From the NCBI GenBank assembly GCA_963659105.1, contig CAVKTQ010000003.1, positions 13,228 to 56,655 of the forward strand: DNA of 43,428 bases, given 5' to 3'. The notes beneath the pieces were generated by a model. It did no database searches. It had not been told where the DNA came from and saw only the letters and a list, made by a program, of their open reading frames with translations. Below are positions 5,880 to 33,960 of this stretch, in pieces. Numbering within the stretch: position 1 is the stretch's first letter; every line of letters begins with the position of its first letter. Source of the stretch: Firmicutes bacterium CAG:238. Its GTDB lineage: Bacteria > Bacillota > Clostridia > Christensenellales > CAG-917. The translations under genes were made by a program, and so were the position numbers.

Positions 5880-5892
5880 GGATGCGATTTTT
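5866..5892 (+). terminator. Intrinsic terminator of the aminotransferase gene
   Basis: Stem AAAATCGCATC / GATGCGATTTT with the TAG stop codon in the loop, followed by a T-run. Confidence 0.75.
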
Positions 5893-5893
5893 C

Positions 5894-6090
5894 AATTAAT
5901 AATTAACAATTAATAATTAATAATTGAGGGTGGGACACGCACACCCGATTGTGCCTGCGGCACAGTGATATTATCTTGCGACAGTGAAATGCACGCTGTG
6001 CGTGCGTGAAATTGTCCTTTCGGACAGTGAAATTTGCACTTCGTGCAAATGAAATTGCACCGTCGGTGCAGTTTTGGAATATTAAAATTC
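5894..6090. repeat. Mosaic repeat locus R2: T module (5894-5947), hairpin/linker array (5950-6070), degenerate hp palindrome
   Basis: An AATTAATAATTAA-rich stretch is followed by GAGGGTGGGACACGCACACCC. Then come the hairpins TGTGCCtgcGGCACA, GCACGCtgtGCGTGC, TGTCCtttcGGACA, TTGCACttcGTGCAA and TGCACCgtcGGTGCA, joined by GTGAAAT/GTGATAT linkers. Confidence 0.9.
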
Positions 6091-6188
6091 TATTTTTCCT
6101 ATTTTTGAAAACATAAAAATTTGCATATTTTTTTGCATATTACCCATACCGCCGTCATAGAGTTTAGCAAACAGAATCGGAGGAGTTT

Positions 6189-9640: not shown

Positions 9641-9822
9641 GAGAGTGCGACAAACTTAATTAAATTGGAAAAAGACCTATTACCTTGGTAACAGGTGCAT
9701 TTTTCGCAAAGCATCGCTTTTTCCAATTTGAGCATGTGGTTTGTCGCAAAATCAGCGAGATGCACTTGTTATATATTGCTTTCTTTGTATCGGGTGTGTT
9801 TCGTTCCCGATACTTTTTTTGG
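9641..9822 (+). promoter_or_regulatory. Structured 5' leader (or small RNA) ending in an intrinsic terminator just before the RBS
   Basis: Nested helices: TGCGACAAAC (9646-9655) pairs with GTTTGTCGCA (9739-9748); TTGGAAAAAG (9665-9674) pairs with CTTTTTCCAA (9717-9726); inner hairpin at 9675-9696. Then the terminator GTATCGGG...CCCGATAC plus T7 (9787-9820), immediately followed by GGAGGAG and the ATG at 9835. Confidence 0.5.
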
Positions 9823-9834
9823 AGGAGAATAAAA

Positions 9835-12051
9835 ATGAAAAGAAAATTTGCGATTACGATTGCATTTTTGCTTGTCGCATTGCTTGCGGCAACACTTGTC
9901 GCTTGCGACATCGATGACGGCAAAACCCCAAACGGAATTGTTTTAAGGGAAGATATGACGTTGGGCGAACTGATAGAAATGGCAAGTGATGTCAAAAGTG
10001 CAACAGTAAAGGCATACGACGAAAGCAATCAACTGATATATGAAAAATATTACAGCGAAAATGCCTGTATATGTTATTTTTATGAAGATAAAGATTTGTA
10101 TTCGTCGCTCGATATGCACGACACTCAGGGGTGGATATTGGACGGATCATTACTCTATCAATTTTACAAAGATGGCGATGATACAAAAATGGCTGTCGTC
10201 GATTATGATGGTTATGATTATGGTTTTTTCGCCATATCTTGTGCCGAAAGCATTTTGGAATGCATCACCGGCGGCAACAGTACAATAGAAAATAACACAA
10301 TTGTTTTTACATCTGTTTTTATATTAGGGTACACTTATATCCCTACTATTGTTTATTCGAACTTAAATAGTACAGAATTTGCACTTCCGAAAGAGTTTGC
10401 AAATTGTAAAGAAGAAGCCGAAACACGTCCTATGCTTGAATATGAGACAACGCCTTTTGAAAACGACGATACAAAATGTAAAATAACAAAAATTAATTGC
10501 AACGACAATTATGAGCTTTTGAAATCAATCGATATCGTTATTCCAAAAACCATTGATGGAAAAACCATCACTGAAATCGGTGAAAATGTGTTTGGATGGG
10601 GCAGTTATTCACGTACTAATGTCAATGTGATAATTCCCGATAGTGTTACAAACATCGGTGATGATGCTTTTTGTTGGTGTCTCGGGCTTTCAAACGTCAC
10701 AATCAGCAACAGTGTGACGAACATCGGCGAATCTGCTTTCGAGAATTGCAGCGGTTTGACGAGCATAACAATCCCAAACAGCGTGACGAACATCGGCAAT
10801 TATGCTTTCTCTGGTTGCAGAAGTTTGACGAGCGTAACAATCGGCAACGGTGTGACGAGCATTGGCAAAAATGTATTTTCCGGTTGTGAGGGTTTAACGA
10901 GCGTCACAATTCCCGAGAGCGTTACGAGCATCGGTGATGATGCTTTTAGTGGGTGTATCGCATTTACAGATATTACGATTCCAAATAGTGTGACTAGCAT
11001 TGGAAATTATGCCTTTTATCATTGCAATGGATTAGTGTATATTGATATTCCGAACAGTGTGACGAGTATAGGCGAGCATGCTTTTGAACGTTGCGAGGGA
11101 TTGTCCGGCGTGACGATTCCCGAGAGTGTTACAAAAATCGGAGACTATGCCTTTTGTAAATGCGATCAATTGGCAAGTGTTACGGTACCAACCGGTGTGA
11201 CGAGTATAGGCGCAGGCGCCGTTTCTGATTGTGCAAAACTGACAACTGTAAACTGGTATGCAACCGCATGTACAACGACGCAATCTGTCTTTTACGATTG
11301 TTTGAACCTAACCGAGTTGAATATAGGCGATAATGTAACAACAATCCCTGCTTATGCCTTTCGTGGTTGTGATGGACTGACAAGTTTAACAATTCCGAAC
11401 AGTGTGACGAGTATAGGAAATGACGCCTTTGTTGGTTGTCGGCGGCTTATTGAAGTGTACAACAAATCATCACTAGATATGGAAGAAAACAGTTTGAGGA
11501 ACTACGGCTTAGATTATATATTGAACGTCTATACGGAAGAAGGCGGAAGTAAACTATCTGTTGATAAAGATGGCTATGTGATATACACAGACGAAGGGAC
11601 GAAGAGCCTTGTTGCATATCACGGAACAGATACGGACATTGTTTTGCCAAGCGGAATCACTACAATTAATCAATACGCCTTCATATATAATGACGGAATT
11701 GCCAGCATCGTAATTCCCGATAGTGTTACAAACATCGGCGATGATGCTTTTTGTTGGTGTCTCGGGCTTTCAAACGTCACAATCGGCAACGGTGTGACGA
11801 GCATTGGCAAAAATGTATTTTCCGGTTGTGAGGGTTTAACGAGCGTCACAATTCCCGAGAGCGTTACGAGCATCGGTGATGATGCTTTTGAGAGGTGCTT
11901 CGAATTAGAAACAATATATTTTAATGGTACAGTGGAAGAATTCAATAAGATTTCCATCGGTGCAAGTGCTTTCGGTAGTACAAAAGCCAAGACCGTTATA
12001 TGCACAAATGGTACTGTAGATAAATACTTCAATGATAGCATCGGCGATTAA
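9835..12051 (+). CDS. Surface lipoprotein with BspA-type leucine-rich repeats (LRR_5-like)
   Basis: ATG 9835 follows GGAGGAG. Signal peptide plus lipobox (LLAATLVAC). More than 15 repeats of about 23 aa of the form IPnSVTsIGdyAFsgCxxLtsV. The in-frame extension back to 9685 lacks an RBS and I reject it. Confidence 0.85.
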   Translation: MKRKFAITIAFLLVALLAATLVACDIDDGKTPNGIVLREDMTLGELIEMASDVKSATVKAYDESNQLIYEKYYSENACICYFYEDKDLYSSLDMHDTQGWILDGSLLYQFYKDGDDTKMAVVDYDGYDYGFFAISCAESILECITGGNSTIENNTIVFTSVFILGYTYIPTIVYSNLNSTEFALPKEFANCKEEAETRPMLEYETTPFENDDTKCKITKINCNDNYELLKSIDIVIPKTIDGKTITEIGENVFGWGSYSRTNVNVIIPDSVTNIGDDAFCWCLGLSNVTISNSVTNIGESAFENCSGLTSITIPNSVTNIGNYAFSGCRSLTSVTIGNGVTSIGKNVFSGCEGLTSVTIPESVTSIGDDAFSGCIAFTDITIPNSVTSIGNYAFYHCNGLVYIDIPNSVTSIGEHAFERCEGLSGVTIPESVTKIGDYAFCKCDQLASVTVPTGVTSIGAGAVSDCAKLTTVNWYATACTTTQSVFYDCLNLTELNIGDNVTTIPAYAFRGCDGLTSLTIPNSVTSIGNDAFVGCRRLIEVYNKSSLDMEENSLRNYGLDYILNVYTEEGGSKLSVDKDGYVIYTDEGTKSLVAYHGTDTDIVLPSGITTINQYAFIYNDGIASIVIPDSVTNIGDDAFCWCLGLSNVTIGNGVTSIGKNVFSGCEGLTSVTIPESVTSIGDDAFERCFELETIYFNGTVEEFNKISIGASAFGSTKAKTVICTNGTVDKYFNDSIGD
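11711..11888 (+). repeat. Intragenic near-identical duplication inside the LRR gene
   Basis: 11711-11786 matches 10631-10706 with one mismatch. 11778-11888 matches 10838-10947 with no differences seen. The two source blocks are about 130 bp apart at the first site and fused at the second. Confidence 0.85.
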
Positions 12052-12118
12052 TGTAAAAAAAAGAGATTAGAAGTCGGTTTTATCAATCTAAATAATTGTA
12101 GACTGGATTGTCTAATTG

Positions 12119-12145
12119 AAAAACGCACCGTCGGGTGCGTTTTTT
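12119..12145. terminator. Bidirectional intrinsic terminator
   Basis: AAAAACGCACC gtcg GGTGCGTTTTT, flanked by A-runs and T-runs, lying between convergent ORFs. Confidence 0.8.
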
Positions 12146-12167
12146 GATCGATTCTCACGAGAGGGGA

Positions 12168-12350
12168 TTACCAGTCCTCACGGTGATTGATTTTGACATC
12201 GTCGTAATACTCAAAGTACTTTTGTTTGTATCTCTGAGTTTCGTTGCGGTGGCGTTTGAGTTCCTCTCTCGCCGCCTTTTCGGCTTCGTTTTTCGGTTCT
12301 GCACCCTTTACTTCGTCAATAGGGGTGAGATTGTATTTCAAATAATCCAT
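12168..12350 (-). CDS. Small hypothetical protein (60 aa, charged)
   Basis: The ORF reads MDYLKYNLTPIDEVKG...YFEYYDDVKINHREDW. Composition is protein-like and it is followed by the shared terminator, but I see no clear RBS upstream. Confidence 0.4.
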   Translation of the reverse strand: MDYLKYNLTPIDEVKGAEPKNEAEKAAREELKRHRNETQRYKQKYFEYYDDVKINHREDW

Positions 12351-12362
12351 ATTAATTTGTAA

Positions 12363-12835
12363 GTGATATTGCACTTATGGTGCAGTGATATTGTCTTACG
12401 ACAGCGATATTGTTGCTTCGCAACGGTGATATTGCGACTTTGTCGCAGTTGCGGAATATTCAAATTTTCCGCTTGCGCACGAAGTGCGCTTCACAAAGCA
12501 GATAATTTGGCGAAACTGTGGCTTGAATCTTTATCCGTGCCTGAACTGATAGCGCAAATTCTCTGCGCGGTTAGTGATTGCGAGAACAAGTGCGGCTTTT
12601 GACAATCGCCCCAAAAGTTTACGTTTCTATTTAGGGGATTCCCACGCTTCGCTCTGAATGACAAAGTGGGCGATTGACGTTGCCACAACGTAGTTTGAGC
12701 AATGGCTCGCCGCTTTGCGGCTCGTGTTCCGTCTGCGAATGAGCAGATACCGTTTATAAGTAGGCTTCGAATTAGTTTTCGTTTCGGGTGTGGGCAGAGC
12801 CCACCCAAAATTATTCATTATTAATTATTAATTAA
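12363..12835. repeat. Mosaic repeat locus R3: hairpin/linker array plus hp (12363-12462), partial inverted L (12463-12610), half F element (12634-12662), T module (12784-12835)
   Basis: GTGATAT-linked hairpins TGCACTtatGGTGCA, TGTCttacGACA, GTTGCttcGCAAC and TGCGACtttGTCGCA. These are followed by GCGGAATATTCAAATTTTCCGC and by GCGCACgaaGTGCGC...AAGCAGATAATTTGGCGAAACTGTGGC, which match the other L copies. Confidence 0.9.
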
Positions 12836-19238: not shown

Positions 19239-19317
19239 AGGTAGACCCCTTGTAATTGCACCTACGGTGCAGTTATATTGCGGCAATGCCGCAGTGATAT
19301 CGTTGCCGTGCAACGGT

Positions 19318-19581
19318 GATATCCTCGCAATGCTCGGGCGATATCCTCGCTATGTTCGGGCGATATCCTCGCTATGCTCGGGCGATATCCTCGCTATGTT
19401 CGGGCGATATCCTCGCTATGCTCGGGCGATATCCTCGCTATGTTCGGGCGATATCCTCGCTATGCTCGGGCGATATCCTCGCTATGTTCGGGCGATATCC
19501 TCGCTATGCTCGGGCGATATCCTCGCTATGTTCGGGCGATATCCTCGCTATGCTCGGGCGATATCCTCGCAGTGCGAGGAT
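19318..19581. repeat. Tandem repeat: 12 units of 22 bp (GATATCCTCGCtatgYTCGGGC) with C/T alternation, giving a 44-bp super-period
   Basis: Units start at 19318, 19340, 19362 ... 19560. Units 2-11 are identical apart from the alternating C/T. The last unit is a perfect hairpin, CCTCGCagtGCGAGG. Confidence 0.97.
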
Positions 19582-19610
19582 TGCGGATTATTCAAATCTG
19601 TTTTCCGCTT

Positions 19611-19709
19611 GTCATTCAGAGGAGCAACAGAGTTGCGACGTAGGAATCAAGGCGAAGCCGCATTTCGCTACGCTGGATTCTCACGGTCACTTTGTTCCCT
19701 CAGAATGAC
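19611..19709. mobile_element. Foldback (MITE-like) element F, copy 2 (full length, 99 bp)
   Basis: GTCATTCAGAGG...CCCTCAGAATGAC. It is near-identical to the reverse complement of 32136-32235. Confidence 0.8.
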
Positions 19710-19967
19710 ACATGGAAGATTTAAATCTTCCGCTCAACTGCGTGCGAAGCACGCTCTCACCAAACAGATAATCTTGCGAAACTGCGGCTTGATTATTTGT
19801 CCGTCTTGTTTTGATAGCAAAGATTCTCTGTGCGGTAGAAGCGCAATAAATCGAGTAAGGTTCTCGGCGATACGCAAATCTGCGTGTTGCCGTTGCCTCA
19901 GCGACGATTTTTGCGCAGTACGATTTCATCACGAAGTGATATCATCGCCAAAGGCGATATCATTTTA

Positions 19968-24077: not shown

Positions 24078-24442
24078 GGGGGTGTTCTGGATTCGACATT
24101 CGGTCTGATGCGGGATAAGCACGTCGTAGGCTCGGCTACGTAAAAACGGAACGTTAAAATTAAACGCAAAAAACAATCAAAAGAGCTCCAATATGGAGTT
24201 CGCTCTTGCTGCATAATTTAAGTCGGCACGTCGACGCGAGGTTTTCTGTTCCCTCGTCAATCGGCGTCAGAAAAACAGACAACGCAATCTGATTTCTCGG
24301 TAGGGTTGTTGTCAATACGAGATCATCGAGGCAAGGTTTGTAGGTGAACCGAACTTAGAAAAATTTTAATCACCGACTAAACGTGTAGAAAGTGCCGAGT
24401 ACGGTCGGGTGGACCGGGGTTCAAATCCCCGCACTTCCACCA
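24078..24442 (+). ncRNA. ssrA: tmRNA (SsrA), 365 nt
   Basis: 5' GGGGGTGTTCTGGATTCGAC and 3' GGACCGGGGTTCAAATCCCCGCACTTCCACCA. The acceptor stem includes a G3:U pair. The tag reading frame is GCA AAA AAC ... GCT CTT GCT GCA TAA, giving AKNNQKSSNMEFALAA. Confidence 0.95.
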
Positions 24443-28297: not shown

Positions 28298-28313
28298 TAG
28301 CAGACGGGAAAGA

Positions 28314-28880
28314 GTGCCTGCGGCACAATGATATTGCACTTCGTGCAGTTATATTGTGTCTGCGACACAGTAAGATTCTCGCTCTGCGAGAGTGATATTG
28401 CGGCGTTGCCGCAGTTGCGGAAGATTCAAATTTTCCATATGTCATTCTGAGGGAATGAAGTGACGGCGAGAATCAAGCGAAGCGAAATGCGGCTGTCGCC
28501 TTGATTGCCACGTTACAACGATATTGCTCCTCCACAGTGATTGTGCGCATTTAGCGCAAGCCTACGGCTTTAATTTGCACTTGTGCAAATACAATCACTC
28601 CAAAAATATCGTCGTTCGCAAACCCTTGCAAGCAAGTTTCCTCACTCGACATTGACGCAATGACGATAGGGGGGGACACCCACACTCGAACAGATATTCA
28701 AATATTCCTCAACCCAAACGAAGTTTGGATATCATCGTGCGATATGCACGATATCATCACAACGTGATATCATCGCCATAGGCGATATCATTTAGGTGAG
28801 GCTGGGGAAGCTTCAAATAAAATGCATCGAGGGCGGGACACCCGCGCCCGAATAAAACACCCGCACCGAATAAAACAAAT
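28314..28880. repeat. Mosaic repeat locus R5: hairpin/linker array plus hp (28314-28436), F (28441-28532), unique multi-hairpin segment (28533-28690), hp plus array (28691-28791), T-type module (28796-28880)
   Basis: Hairpins GTGCCtgcGGCAC, TGCACttcGTGCA, TGTGTCtgcGACACA, TCTCGCtctGCGAGA and TGCGGCgttGCCGCA joined by GTGATAT-like linkers. The second array is near-identical to 32443-32520 and 1546-1620. Confidence 0.9.
28441..28532. mobile_element. Foldback element F, copy 3 (inverted, distal terminus degenerate)
   Basis: GTCATTCTGAGGGAATGAAGTGAC... aligns with 32136-32228. The final CTGAATGAC terminus is missing. Confidence 0.7.
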
Positions 28881-28896
28881 TCACCCGAATCAAATC

Positions 28897-28924
28897 AAAA
28901 AGCACGGCAGCGCCGTGCTTTTCC
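28897..28924. terminator. Hairpin terminator between convergent thiT-like and thiN genes
   Basis: AGCACGGC agc GCCGTGCT, flanked by A5 and T4. Confidence 0.65.
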
Positions 28925-29033
28925 GTTAGAAAGGTTTTGGAAAACGATGAATTTTTTTGTTTTCGGTATATATACAATCGAAACGCTCGTTTTATTGGAC
29001 AAAAACAAGAAAAAATTCAATTTTTTTGAAAAT

Positions 29034-30803: not shown

Positions 30804-31751
30804 ATGAAAGTCACAATACCTTCGGGATTTAAGATAGGACACTACAACGACGACTTCACGGGCGTCAGCGTCATCCTTGCGCCAAACGGCGCAGTTGGCG
30901 GAGTGGATTGCAGAGGCGGCGCACCCGGTACGAGGGAAACCGACCTTCTGCACAACGAAAAAATGATGCAAAAGGTGAATGCAATCGTGCTGTCGGGCGG
31001 CTCGGCATACGGACTTGCCTCAACCGTCGGCGTTATGGAATACCTCAAAGAGCAGGGCAAAGGCTATCGCTCGATGGGCAAAATCGTACCCATAGTCTGC
31101 GGTGCGGTTTTGTACGACCTCAACCAAAAGGAATATCACTATCCGACGGCAGAATATGGACTTAAAGCGTGCCAAAACGCCGCAAAAACCCTCGATTTCG
31201 GCAATATCGGCGCAGGAAAGGGCGCAACTGTCGGCAAAATCAGAGGCTTGAAAAACGCTTGCAAAAGCGGCGTCGGCGCGGCAACGGTCAAAGTGCTCGG
31301 CGTGAATGTGACGGCAATCGTCGCAGTCAACGCAATGGGCGACGTGGTTGACGAAACGGGCAAAATCATCGCAGGCGCAAAGGGGCGCAACGGCGAGTTT
31401 ATCGACACCGAAAAGTGCCTTGCAAGCGGCGACGCAATGAAACTCTTGCTTGGCACAAACACCACCATCGGTTGTATAATCACCGACGCGAAACTTTCAA
31501 AAGTCGAGGCAAACTCGATTGCGAGCATATCCCACAACGGGCTTGCAAGGGCAATCCGCCCCGTGCATACCATGTATGACGGCGACACGATGTTTTGTAT
31601 GGCAAGCGGCAAACGTGCCGTTATGAATCTTGCCATAATCCAATCCGCCGCAGTCGAAGCCACAAGACAAGCGATTGTCAACGCCGTGCGAGAAAGCGCA
31701 ACCTATGACATAATCTTCGACCAAGACGAGCAGGACAACCAACAACTCTAA
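30804..31751 (+). CDS. P1 (DmpA/ornithine acetyltransferase-like, S58) family aminopeptidase
   Basis: ATG 30804 follows GAGGAA. N-terminus GFKIGHYNDDFTGVSVILAPNGAVGGVDCRGGAPGTRETDLL is typical of the family. Confidence 0.8.
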   Translation: MKVTIPSGFKIGHYNDDFTGVSVILAPNGAVGGVDCRGGAPGTRETDLLHNEKMMQKVNAIVLSGGSAYGLASTVGVMEYLKEQGKGYRSMGKIVPIVCGAVLYDLNQKEYHYPTAEYGLKACQNAAKTLDFGNIGAGKGATVGKIRGLKNACKSGVGAATVKVLGVNVTAIVAVNAMGDVVDETGKIIAGAKGRNGEFIDTEKCLASGDAMKLLLGTNTTIGCIITDAKLSKVEANSIASISHNGLARAIRPVHTMYDGDTMFCMASGKRAVMNLAIIQSAAVEATRQAIVNAVRESATYDIIFDQDEQDNQQL

Positions 31752-31768
31752 TCGATGGGCGGGGACAA

Positions 31769-32590
31769 TGCCTTAGGCACAATGAAATGCACGCAAGCGT
31801 GCGTGAAATTGCGCAAAAATCATCGCATAGGCAACGGCAACACGCAAGTGTGCGTATCGCCGAGAGCCTTGCTCGATTTATTGCGCAACTACCGCGCAGA
31901 GAATCTTTGCTATCAAAATAAGACGGATAAACAATCAAGCCGCAGTTTCGCAAGATTATCTGCTTGGTGAAGCGCACTTCGTGCGCAGTTGAGCGGAAGA
32001 TTTGAATATTCCATAACCCAAACGAAGTTTGGATATCATCGTGCAATATGCACGATATCATCACAGCGTGATATCATCGCCGCAGGCGATATCATTGCAC
32101 AGAGCGCAATAGCGGATAAATTGAATAATCCATATGTCATTCTGAGGGAACGGAGTTACCGTGAGAATCAAGCTTAGCGCAATGCGGTTGTCGCCTTGAT
32201 TCCTACGTCGCAACGATGTTGCTTCTCTGAATGACAAGCGCAAAAATCATCGCATTAGCAACGGCAACACGCAAGTTTGCGTATCGCCGAGAGCCGTGCT
32301 CTATTTATTGCGCTACTAACCGCGCAGAGAATTTGCGCTATCAGTTCAAGCACAAATAAAACCTCACGCCACAATTTCGCCAAATTATCTGCTTGGTGAA
32401 GCGCACTTCGTGCGCAGGATGAGGATTCAAATATTCCGCAACCCAAACGAAGTTTGGATATCATCGTGCAATATGCACGATATCATCACAACGTGATATC
32501 ACCGCCATAGGCGATATCATTTATGTGAGGATGGCGAATCTTCAAATAAAATACATCGAGGGCGGAACACCCGCACCCGAATAAATTATT
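31769..32590. repeat. Mosaic repeat locus R6 (most complete): mini-array, L (31810-32012), array (32018-32110), hp, F (32136-32235), L (32236-32440), array (32443-32520), T-type module (32521-32590)
   Basis: Two tandem L copies are visibly similar over about 200 nt. The arrays carry ATATCAT linkers. The module order largely parallels R1. Confidence 0.92.
32136..32235. mobile_element. Foldback element F, copy 4 (full length, inverted relative to copies 1 and 2)
   Basis: GTCATTCTGAGGGAACGG...GCTTCTCTGAATGAC, flanked by TCC-ATAT on the left and AAGCGCAAAAATC (start of L) on the right. Confidence 0.8.
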
Positions 32591-32611
32591 CGCAGAAAAC
32601 AAACAAAATTT

Positions 32612-33733
32612 ATGAACATCAGCATAATGCTCAAACCGGCGTCGTCAAATTGTAATTTGCGATGCAAATATTGTTTTTACAACTCGCTTTCAAGCCAACG
32701 CGAGATGCCTTCGCACGGGCTTATGAGCGAGCAAACCTTGCGCGCCACGCTCAAAAAAGCGTTCGATTTTGCAGGAGACGACAGAGTTATGCTCTCCTTT
32801 CAAGGCGGCGAGCCGCTGCTTGCAGGCAAGGACTTTTTCAGAAAACTGCACGAGATTATACGTCAACTTAACGTCAATCGCGCGCCCGTCAGCATAGGCA
32901 TTCAAACCAACGGCACGCTCATCGACGACGAGTGGTGTTCCATTTTCAAACGCGGCGGCTATCTCGTCGGATTGAGCCTCGACGGCGACGAACTTGCCGA
33001 CTCTCTGCGCATTGACGCAAACGGCAATCAAACGTTTCCTCGCGTTCTCGAAAGCGCGAAACTTATGCAAAAATACGGAGTGAATTTCAACATTCTCACC
33101 GTGCTTACGAAGCAAGCCGCAAACAGAATCGTGCCGATATACAACTTTTTCAAAAAGCAAAAATTCAAGCACTTGCAGTTTATCCCTATGTTGAAGCCCT
33201 TGCGCCTCGACGAGTCGGGCAAGCCATCTTGCGCAAAAACCTACGGCGAGCCGTTCCCGAGCGAGGACGAAAACTACGTTATGTCGGGCGAGGATTACTA
33301 CAAGTTTTTGCAAAAATGCTTCTCGCTCTATCTTAAAGACTGTATGGACGGCAAGTATACTTCGGTAAGGCAATTCGACAATTTCGTACGGCTTGCGCAT
33401 TTTCAAAACTGCGAGCAATGCGGAATGGAAGGACATTGTTGTCATCAGTTCGTCATCGAGGGCGACGGCGAAGTGTATCCTTGCGACTTCTATTGCCTCG
33501 ATTGCTACGATATGGGCAACATAAACGACACGGACTTCTTCGCACTGTCCAAGCACCCCATAGCCGTCGAGTTTATCAAAGAAAGTATGGTCGTAGAGGA
33601 AAAGTGCAAGACGTGCAAGTACTTTGCGCTGTGCAAAAACGGTTGCAAACGCGAGCGTATCGACATCGACAAATGCGAAGCGTACAAAAAGTTTTTTGCC
33701 TACGCCTTGCCTCACTTGCAACGCATAAGTTGA
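32612..33733 (+). CDS. Radical SAM / SPASM-domain enzyme (anaerobic sulfatase-maturase-like)
   Basis: 373 aa. N-terminal CNLRCKYCF (Cx3Cx2C) and a C-terminal Cys-rich SPASM region (CEQCG...HCCHQ...CDFYC...CKTCKYFALCKNGC). No obvious RBS. Confidence 0.85.
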   Translation: MNISIMLKPASSNCNLRCKYCFYNSLSSQREMPSHGLMSEQTLRATLKKAFDFAGDDRVMLSFQGGEPLLAGKDFFRKLHEIIRQLNVNRAPVSIGIQTNGTLIDDEWCSIFKRGGYLVGLSLDGDELADSLRIDANGNQTFPRVLESAKLMQKYGVNFNILTVLTKQAANRIVPIYNFFKKQKFKHLQFIPMLKPLRLDESGKPSCAKTYGEPFPSEDENYVMSGEDYYKFLQKCFSLYLKDCMDGKYTSVRQFDNFVRLAHFQNCEQCGMEGHCCHQFVIEGDGEVYPCDFYCLDCYDMGNINDTDFFALSKHPIAVEFIKESMVVEEKCKTCKYFALCKNGCKRERIDIDKCEAYKKFFAYALPHLQRIS

Positions 33734-33781
33734 AAAATAGGCGGAATAGGGCATAGTTTTTGAGATAAAAACTATGGAAGA

Positions 33782-33891
33782 AACCGCAAAAAAACCGCAA
33801 AAAAACCGCAAAGAAACCGCAAAAAAACCGCAAAGAAACCGCAAAGAAACCGCAAAGAAACCGCAAAGAAACCGCAAAGAAACCGCAAAAA
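33782..33891. repeat. Tandem repeat: 10 units of 11 bp (AACCGCAAA[G/A]A)
   Basis: Units start at 33782, 33793 ... 33881. A-tracts recur every 11 bp. A 41-codon ORF (33774-33899) runs through the repeat. Confidence 0.97.
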
Positions 33892-33926
33892 ATCAATAAA
33901 AAATCACGATAAAAACCATAAAAACC

Positions 33927-33960
33927 GACAAAAAAATACGCTCGATTGCCGAGCGTATTT
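33927..33960 (-). terminator. Intrinsic terminator of the GtrA-like gene
   Basis: AAATACGCTCG attgc CGAGCGTATTT, with T7 following on the minus strand. Confidence 0.75.

Follow-up and report, generated by a model that had tools for sequence, protein, structure and literature searches.

The bcr1 repeat of the Bacillus cereus group, about 155 bp long, comprises two predicted stem-loops, shows compensatory changes that preserve its RNA structure and is transcribed together with its neighbours (PMC3184786). The BOX elements of the pneumococcus (boxA-boxB(n)-boxC) are extensively folded and are believed to influence the genes with which they are transcribed (PMC3049150), and the REP/BIME sequences of E. 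coli, in which REP units are 20-40 nt long, GC-rich and tagged with GTAG or CGTC (PMC3733652), have been linked to mRNA stabilisation and attenuation (PMC3184786, PMC3049150). Gut-1, a candidate non-coding RNA (ncRNA) reported in 2010, is known only from human-gut sequence (PMC2864571). The element described here, L, lies in a stretch of 43,428 nucleotides of contig CAVKTQ010000003.1 of Firmicutes bacterium CAG:238 (hereafter the window), in which an earlier note, made from the letters alone, had proposed a multi-copy, non-coding, hairpin-rich unit of about 200 nt. L is a real non-coding, hairpin-forming repeat with many copies in the intergenic regions of a group of uncultured Clostridia from the gut, and it seems to be a new family within a known kind, the mosaic repeats represented by BIME, BOX and bcr1. 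That its predicted fold is maintained through many compensatory substitutions is strongly supported.

Exactly six copies of L, four full and two partial, were recovered in the window by a covariance model (R1) run with filters off, alongside an nhmmer profile built from the four full copies. The six score 91-228 bits (the full ones 197-228), and all remaining R1 matches in the window stay below 25 bits, the strongest being reverse-strand echoes of palindromic repeats. The focal copy occupies 31810-32014 on the plus strand (nhmmer E=7e-68; 227.9 bits with R1) and consists of unit A (31810-31894), unit B (31894-31988) and a palindrome, J (31995-32012). A second full copy is found on the plus strand of the same intergenic region at 32237-32439 (A 32237-32320, B 32322-32417, J 32420-32437; 216.9 bits). 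A third, at 1129-1331 on the plus strand (197.2 bits), takes its first bases from the TGA stop (1129-1131) of the upstream gene, glycosyltransferase-like by Pfam, and the fourth, at 19712-19917 on the minus strand (218.8 bits), is co-oriented with its minus-strand neighbours and keeps its orthologous position in five species. The partial copies are 1423-1542 on the plus strand, with unit B and J only (model positions 87-203; 90.7 bits), and 12451-12606 on the minus strand, with the 3' part of a variant unit A followed by unit B and J (model positions 48-203; 134.3 bits, the covariance model reaching 12703). These are the copies that the earlier note had listed, in both orientations and at essentially the same coordinates, as judged by a repeat finder, nhmmer and R1, and the conserved blocks it had named are seen in the alignment of the six stretches. 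For the copy that it placed at 12463 the presence was borne out, but the left part belongs to a different variant of unit A, one that also occurs in tandem in a relative locus, L073. Similarly, the single element of about 200 nt is a real unit, but it is a composite of two separable ones, A and B. A degenerate 21-nt core (CGCMMRWKTRYYTGYTTKGTG) has 6 matches in the window against 0.00 expected from shuffles. The claim that L is non-coding also held: indels of 1-2 nt separate the copies in the alignment, and with genes called by a codon-usage model trained on the long open reading frames (ORFs) of the L loci, an overlap of more than 30 nt with a gene is seen for only 2 of 151 copies.

The fold was derived from 55 full copies, for which RNAalifold predicts 39 pairs, 20 of them compensatory, and it was extended by hand to 51 pairs in six helices. 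Unit A would form a rod of about 80 nt (31811-31886, plus strand, in the focal copy) made of P1 (31811-31821/31875-31886), P1b (31825-31832/31866-31872), P2 (31835-31840/31857-31862) and P3 (31842-31846/31851-31855). Unit B would begin with P4 (31891-31968, plus strand), a long interrupted helix whose arms (31891-31910/31950-31968) close an A-rich loop of about 40 nt, and would end in the 6-bp hairpin P5 (31972-31986, plus strand; GCGCAC-ttc-GTGCGC, arms 31972-31977/31981-31986). Extra pairing inside the 40-nt loop found no covariation support by eye in the alignment. In the 55-copy set 95.1% of the cells are standard-paired and 23 of the 51 pairs are changed on both sides; none of 500 shuffles reached any of five fold measures, and sliding the 3' partners by 1-3 columns reduced pairing to 30-45%. 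A second set of 94 metagenome copies gave 94.2% paired cells and compensatory changes at 42 of the 51 pairs, in an alignment that was fitted to the structure and so leans towards it. P4 is paired in 98.4% of its cells, with compensatory changes at 7 of 16 pairs in A2 and 12 of 16 in A4. For the focal copy, unit A folded as a single sequence reaches -35 kcal/mol (z=-4.4), and rod A is thermodynamically robust, with z ranging from -3 to -5.7.

The most persuasive evidence for the predicted fold is qualitative, and it comes from the different sequence versions of the helices. P4 occurs in four, namely GCAGAgAATCTT/AAGATTaTCTGC, ..AATTTG/CAAATT.., GCAAGC..CTC/GAG..GCTTGC and ACAATCGTTCAT/ATGAACGATTGT, all of them complementary, and rod A occurs in three, in which every helix is altered and complementarity is retained. 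In P5, the states UA/GC and CG/AU stand at 27:24 and 31:22, and each of the three commoner P4 versions occurs with both P5 states, which therefore points to repeated change or to recombination. The double change that the earlier note had seen in this hairpin, GCGCAC/GTGCGC against GCGTGC/GCACGC, is real at 31972-31986 and 1503-1517 (24:27 among 55 copies), and the ACGCA-loop-TGCGT stem, for which it had reported variable loops, is equally real and corresponds to helix P3. Its proposal that pairing is kept by compensatory change was in fact understated, as both copy sets hold far more such changes than the one hairpin that it had claimed.

L is widespread beyond the window. An exact-pattern scan of contigs from one genome per species returned at least 104 loci, four of them chance matches in unrelated phyla, and nearly all of these listed loci come from about 15 genomes of uncultured human-gut Clostridia, whose record titles include 'Christensenella sp.' UBA6880 and nC33, UMGS1042, UMGS1043, UMGS1170, UMGS1331 and CAG:475, some bins being implausibly labelled. 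In the window and these loci together, nhmmer gave at least 165 L matches, 57 of them near full length; partial copies recurrently start at model position 48 (21 times) or 80 (17 times). A second set was obtained by scanning metagenome contigs with a pattern from unit A, the left half of L, which gave 117 loci, 76 of them real. In total, more than 250 further copies were found, spread over about 15 genomes of uncultured human-gut Clostridia and over gut metagenomes. In the metagenome set, which was selected through unit A, B follows A in 72 of 81 testable cases, and L, as A plus B, is therefore a real unit; unit B was also found alone and as tandem arrays. No L match was obtained in plasmid and phage collections with blastn, nor in viral contigs by the exact-pattern scan. 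Searches of Rfam 15 gave nothing for L at the gathering score over the whole window and nothing at E<=10 over 31700-32650, tmRNA and Gut-1 being the sole families matched, and no description of the family was found in a literature search on Christensenellales repeats. L appears to be a previously undescribed family, for which Rfam 15 holds no model.

The orientation of L is strongly biased. Counting each intergenic region once, L shares the strand of its upstream gene in 81 cases and lies opposite to it in 16 (p about 1e-11), and the bias is present within single genomes (18:2, 10:2, 11:3 and 10:5 in the largest sets) and repeated in the metagenome set (72:20). As to the arrangement of the flanking genes, 41 regions are tandem and co-oriented with L, 6 tandem and anti-oriented, 18 convergent and 4 divergent. 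Where genes oppose the local GC skew, computed over 8-kb pieces as a proxy for replication, L follows the genes by 9:1, and in the window the cumulative GC skew rises almost throughout and L flips with the gene blocks. The orientation bias thus follows transcription and not the GC-skew replication proxy.

The position of L relative to the upstream gene is also not arbitrary. Of 33 independent groups, defined by the upstream protein, 15 contain at least one A unit whose 5' end falls within -21 to +3 nt of the upstream stop codon, and at about 40% of independent loci unit A begins at this stop or overlaps it. Examples of such junctions are ...GTG TGA|GCAAAAATC (window 1129), TAA|GCAAAAATC, TGA|CGCAAAAATC and TAA|GAGCAAAAATC, and at some loci the ORF enters A by a few codons and ends at a TAA inside its A-run. 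At the junctions, the outermost pairs of P1 take in the final one or two stop-codon bases, and the 3' partner matches them (GAGCAA/TTGCTC, AAGCAA/TTGCTT, ACGCAA/TTGCGT). In two regions of the window, 12052-12831, with a partial L, and 28298-29033, without L, the repeats sit between a stop codon and a recognisable intrinsic terminator, and in the focal region no terminator was found between the upstream gene and L. It is rather probable, in our judgement, that L is carried in the sense direction in 3' untranslated regions (UTRs) and intercistronic spacers and has consequences there, as a barrier to exonucleases, as a site for double-strand RNases or by interfering with terminating ribosomes. 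L would be co-transcribed as a 3'-UTR or intercistronic segment and would act, if at all, in cis on the mRNA; its rods might stop 3'-5' exonucleases or be cut by double-strand RNases, and a rod with the stop codon in its base would have to be melted by each terminating ribosome.

L does not stand alone in the intergenic regions. The earlier note missed the larger mosaic, the division into A and B and the preferred start of L at the stop of the preceding gene. One set of modules is shared by six of the window's intergenic regions (1132-1660, 5880-6188, 12052-12831, 19240-19967, 28298-29033 and 31752-32611), and the order of the modules loosely follows the pattern [Gut-1 hairpins] A B J (S) (J) H. 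The G arrays are chains of hairpin units of about 22 nt with a GTGA(T/A)AT spacer, and that at 5982-6060 on the plus strand is Gut-1 (RF01706, 66.4 bits with Rfam); other arrays of Gut-1 type lie at 12361-12445, 19250-19590 and 28320-28415. H modules (1543-1625, 19915-19964, 28711-28792, 32015-32096 and 32440-32521) correspond to Gut-1 read on the minus strand, and the one directly 3' of the focal L (32015-32096, plus strand) has four hairpins with ATATCAT spacers; against RF01706, H on the minus strand scores 34.9 and 37.6 bits, below the gathering score. Gut-1 is thus probably a dispersed module of the repeat mosaic to which L belongs and not a stand-alone small RNA (sRNA) gene. L itself was also considered as Gut-1 and was set aside, as it is unmatched by RF01706 and only the flanking modules match.

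J, an AT-rich palindrome (GGAAnATTnAAATnTTCC; GCGGAAnATTnAAATnTTCCGC), marks nearly every module junction. On both strands and with up to 3 mismatches it has 20 matches against 2.7 expected; it was located at 1312-1329, 1523-1540, 6076-6093, 12453-12470, 19714-19731, 28419-28436, 28691-28708, 31995-32012, 32114-32131 and 32420-32437. J is present on both sides of S where a relative lacks S, and it could be a recombination site. S is a unit of about 95 nt with 12-bp terminal inverted repeats (GTCATTCTGAGG...CCTCTGAATGAC) and the repeat motif GTCATTCWGAG, resembling a MITE (a miniature transposable element with inverted repeats). One S, of about 95 nt and with the 12-bp inverted repeats GTCATTCTGAGG, separates the two full L copies of the focal region (32136-32235, plus strand), and others lie at 1334-1420, 19611-19709 and 28441-28534, with an end fragment at 12652-12662. 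S takes either orientation relative to L and is usually entered from J (..CCATAT|GTCATTC), and 63 copies were found in the genome loci.

Orthologous intergenic regions whose flanks are 89-95% identical carry differing module sets. The focal region reads G-A-B-J-H-J-S-A-B-J-H in the window, G-A-B-J-S in L046 and G-A-B-J-S-J-H in L061; 3' of the glycosyltransferase gene, the order is A-B-J-S'-B-J-H in the window, A-B in L066 and A-B-J-S-J-H in L077, and L073 has unrelated sequence there. In 19240-19967, S is accompanied by a second J that is missing in relatives. Whole L has no terminal inverted repeats; P1 closes unit A and P4 closes unit B, each as a pair of inverted repeats. L may have been spread and rearranged by recombination between repeats or through an enzyme that recognises its hairpins; it would encode no transposase of its own.

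Several observations weigh against an effect of L on mRNA. The main rival is selfish DNA of the MITE or REP type, whose arms would be kept for a DNA enzyme (a transposase, a hairpin-binding Y1/RAYT-type enzyme or a tyrosine recombinase) that binds both ends or a DNA hairpin, whose RNA would have no role and whose orientation bias would arise only because antisense copies are harmful in operons. A typical functional RNA shows a clear excess of G.U pairs on its own strand, and L has no such excess on the sense strand: over 157 copies, counted per paired site, G.U is commoner than A.C at 19 sites, rarer at another 19 and equal to it at 14, with one invariant G.U in P4 favouring the sense strand and two frequent A.C positions in rod A favouring the antisense. 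Such strand-symmetric wobble use fits selfish DNA, and the pairing is explained equally well by a strand-blind constraint at the DNA level; since the wobble pairs do not reveal which strand folds, a function at the RNA level is inferred. As RNA, the antisense strand folds better in the window copy (-80.5 against -67 kcal/mol for the sense strand) and is the more stable one for most A units (48 of 55) and most B units (44 of 55), and unit B, when it is folded alone, does not surpass shuffled sequence in stability (z about 0 to -2). On its antisense strand, unit A finishes with a hairpin and then TTTTTGC, which is terminator-like and would have a polar effect in a backward insertion of L, and this gives a simple selective reason for the orientation bias without any RNA function, a caveat to be kept in mind. 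In L073, three tandem units of variant A and B lie downstream of a strong intrinsic terminator. Since orthologs make up many of the copies, independent events are fewer than the counts suggest, and the evidence for co-transcription, namely the sense orientation (81:16) and the position between stop and terminator, is indirect. Selfish DNA is further favoured by the inverted repeats closing A and B, which co-vary as sets, by the shifts in module content between close relatives and by the neighbouring S with its classic 12-bp terminal inverted repeats.

Other observations speak against selfish DNA. No transposase or recurrent ORF was found near more than 250 copies, and neither a target-site duplication nor a mobilising enzyme was detected around L copies, a point that also counts against the cis-acting reading: flanking direct repeats of k>=5 occur in 4 copies against 4.2 expected from shuffled flank pairs, and no clean empty site was recovered among the orthologous intergenic regions compared. 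L persists at orthologous sites: at one site shared by five species, A-B is 87-95% identical and the coding flanks 84-95%, and at the focal site the orthologous L is 98.4% identical against about 90% for the coding flanks, so that conservation equals or exceeds that of the flanks, with the exception of one site with a swapped B version. That L starts at stop codons, and that convergent regions outnumber divergent ones (18:4), argues in addition for placement relative to transcripts. Selfish DNA is, to our mind, a possible but rather unlikely account of the whole, and it and a cis-acting role in mRNA are not mutually exclusive.

We continue to prefer this cis-acting role, which may be contrasted with the idea that L copies are multi-copy, independently transcribed, trans-acting sRNA genes of about 200 nt. 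Such genes would agree with the strong covariation and with the fact that the adjacent Gut-1 arrays were first proposed as non-coding RNA (PMC2864571), but each locus has different sequence directly 5' of L, be it the stop codon of some unrelated gene, a set of Gut-1 hairpins or an S unit, and neither a sigma-70-like promoter nor a sense-strand terminator was found in or beside L. The stand-alone repeated ncRNA suggested by the earlier note is not supported on these grounds. Truncated and tandem partial units, the density of about 6 per 43 kb in the window and the missing G.U excess on the sense strand speak against sRNA genes as well, and we regard them as very unlikely.

The genes next to L bear on a further suggestion of the earlier note, that a degenerate insertion sequence of the IS200/IS605 group (TnpB/IscB) has left its right end, or its omega-RNA scaffold, as L. 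In the window, L is flanked by genes for an MGDG-synthase-like glycosyltransferase, a radical-SAM/DUF512 protein, a BspA-type leucine-rich-repeat protein, YhbY, an ABC ATPase, a helix-turn-helix (HTH)-cupin regulator, a peptidase S58 and a radical-SAM/SPASM protein. These are unrelated housekeeping genes, so L does not serve a single gene family as its leader or riboswitch. Pfam classification of 117 flanking proteins showed no transposase, TnpB or recombinase in the 25 families with most members (each with at least 2), and in a set of 547 proteins predicted from the L loci no ORF with multiple copies was found to go with the repeats, the sole ORF family with at least 3 copies in one assembly having six members. 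No Y1 (HUH) transposase or RAYT was found among the flanking genes of the 8-kb genome pieces, no genome-wide search for RAYT having been made. The length and hairpin content of L are compatible with an IS200/IS605 remnant, and palindromic mini-elements derived from this group are known in the literature; nevertheless, no tnpB, iscB or tnpA adjoins any copy, the upstream genes being those of a glycosyltransferase, peptidase S58, HTH-cupin regulator and the like, no Rfam match was obtained at any threshold used, orientation tracks the genes and not the GC-skew proxy, and the units occur independently, breaks recurring at model positions 48 and 80. The housekeeping flanks, the lack of a multi-copy ORF and of an Rfam match and the gene-following orientation leave this origin extremely improbable.

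Other systems were considered and dropped. An integron attC site does not fit, as the ends of unit A (GCGCAAAAATC ... GATTTATTGCGC) do not match RYYYAAC ... GTTRRRY and the neighbours are dispersed housekeeping genes and not cassettes. Retron msr/msd, riboswitch or leader, and CRISPR were discarded together with attC, given that there are no reverse transcriptase or integrase neighbours and no gene-family specificity, and that the core motifs are wrong.

Some further features of the window and its relatives were recorded. A 22-nt tandem repeat at 19239-19612 (GGCGATATCCTCGCTATGYTCG), in 12 to about 16 copies and with a C/T alternation at one position, is an expanded run of Gut-1-type units directly upstream of the start of the minus-strand ABC ATPase gene. 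A region of L073 (5420-6170) is the ortholog of window 5880-6188, with flanks about 95% identical; the window has only Gut-1 hairpins there, and L073 has its tandem units, of about 235 nt each and made of variant A and B, 3' of a terminator shared with the window ortholog. This pair shows how rapidly such regions expand. A short hairpin repeat, GGGYGGGACACCCRCACCCGA, lies near gene ends at 5928-5948, 28669-28689, 28831-28851 and 32559-32580 on the plus strand and at 12786-12808 on the minus strand, often preceded by AATTAATAATTAAT. A 68-codon ORF at 12168-12374 on the minus strand, with coding-like codon usage and no Pfam match, is situated between a hairpin array and a bidirectional terminator (12120-12146). 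At 33745-33942, 3' of the radical-SAM/SPASM gene, an 11-nt tandem repeat (AAGAAACCGCA) is present in about 13 copies, and the ATG at 33773 opens a 41-codon, Lys-rich repetitive ORF (MEETAKKPQKNRKETAKKPQ...). The 788-aa BspA-type leucine-rich-repeat protein is encoded at 9685-12051 on the plus strand, its 69-nt (23-aa) repeats being the direct-repeat families D3-D5, and a tmRNA gene lies at 24078-24442 on the plus strand (RF00023, 152.9 bits).

L is of some interest for the depth of its covariation, for the modular grammar that it shares with Gut-1 and for the stop-codon junction together with the transcription-linked orientation bias. By a rough tally of the mosaic regions, the family occupies several percent of the window, and its hosts are common, uncultured human-gut bacteria with small genomes, whose assemblies are fragmented by these repeats; the repeats can also be mistaken for ncRNA genes or small ORFs. 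Hundreds of natural variants, the orientation bias and the placement at stop codons make the family a test system for the question of whether such repeats are genomic parasites or act on mRNA. A bolder version of the cis-acting role, which we put forward as doubtful, is that A-B is a portable cis-acting RNA device coupled to translation termination, in which the upstream stop codon, placed in the base of rod A or directly beside it, would oblige each terminating ribosome to unfold the rod and so tune mRNA decay, processing or downstream translation, and that the family would have spread as a post-transcriptional module, possibly through recombination at J. If this were true, non-coding modules would in effect be shuffled by a system that spans the chromosome.

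L is high-copy, intergenic and dispersed by unrelated genes, and it is built of separable palindromic modules in variable number and order, traits that place it beside the mosaic repeats with which we began. Like bcr1, it is a dispersed intergenic repeat of Firmicutes whose predicted structure is preserved by compensatory change. Unlike L, bcr1 has 5-bp flanking direct repeats and is present or absent between strains, whereas L has no target-site duplication, forms a multi-module mosaic, shows a marked sense bias and frequently starts at a stop codon, and there is no sequence similarity between the two. BOX elements resemble L as modular, composite intergenic repeats of variable length with extensive secondary structure; they differ in the terminal inverted repeats of boxA-boxC, in their target-site duplications and in a proposed cognate insertion sequence (ISSpn2), of which whole L has none, and the modules are unrelated in sequence. 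Gut-1 shares the intergenic mosaics of L, the focal copy having a forward array on its 5' side and an inverted one, H, on its 3' side, but it is a chain of hairpin units of about 22 nt, in contrast to the two large rods of L. REP sequences are mobilised by RAYT transposases and are short, whereas the units of L measure about 80 nt and have internal loops. REPs close to the stop codon reportedly affect translation, as Liang, Rudd and Deutscher are said to have found in 2015. REP/BIME repeats are located in 3' UTRs and between co-transcribed genes, and, like L, they form mosaics of palindromic units and other short motifs in hundreds of copies.

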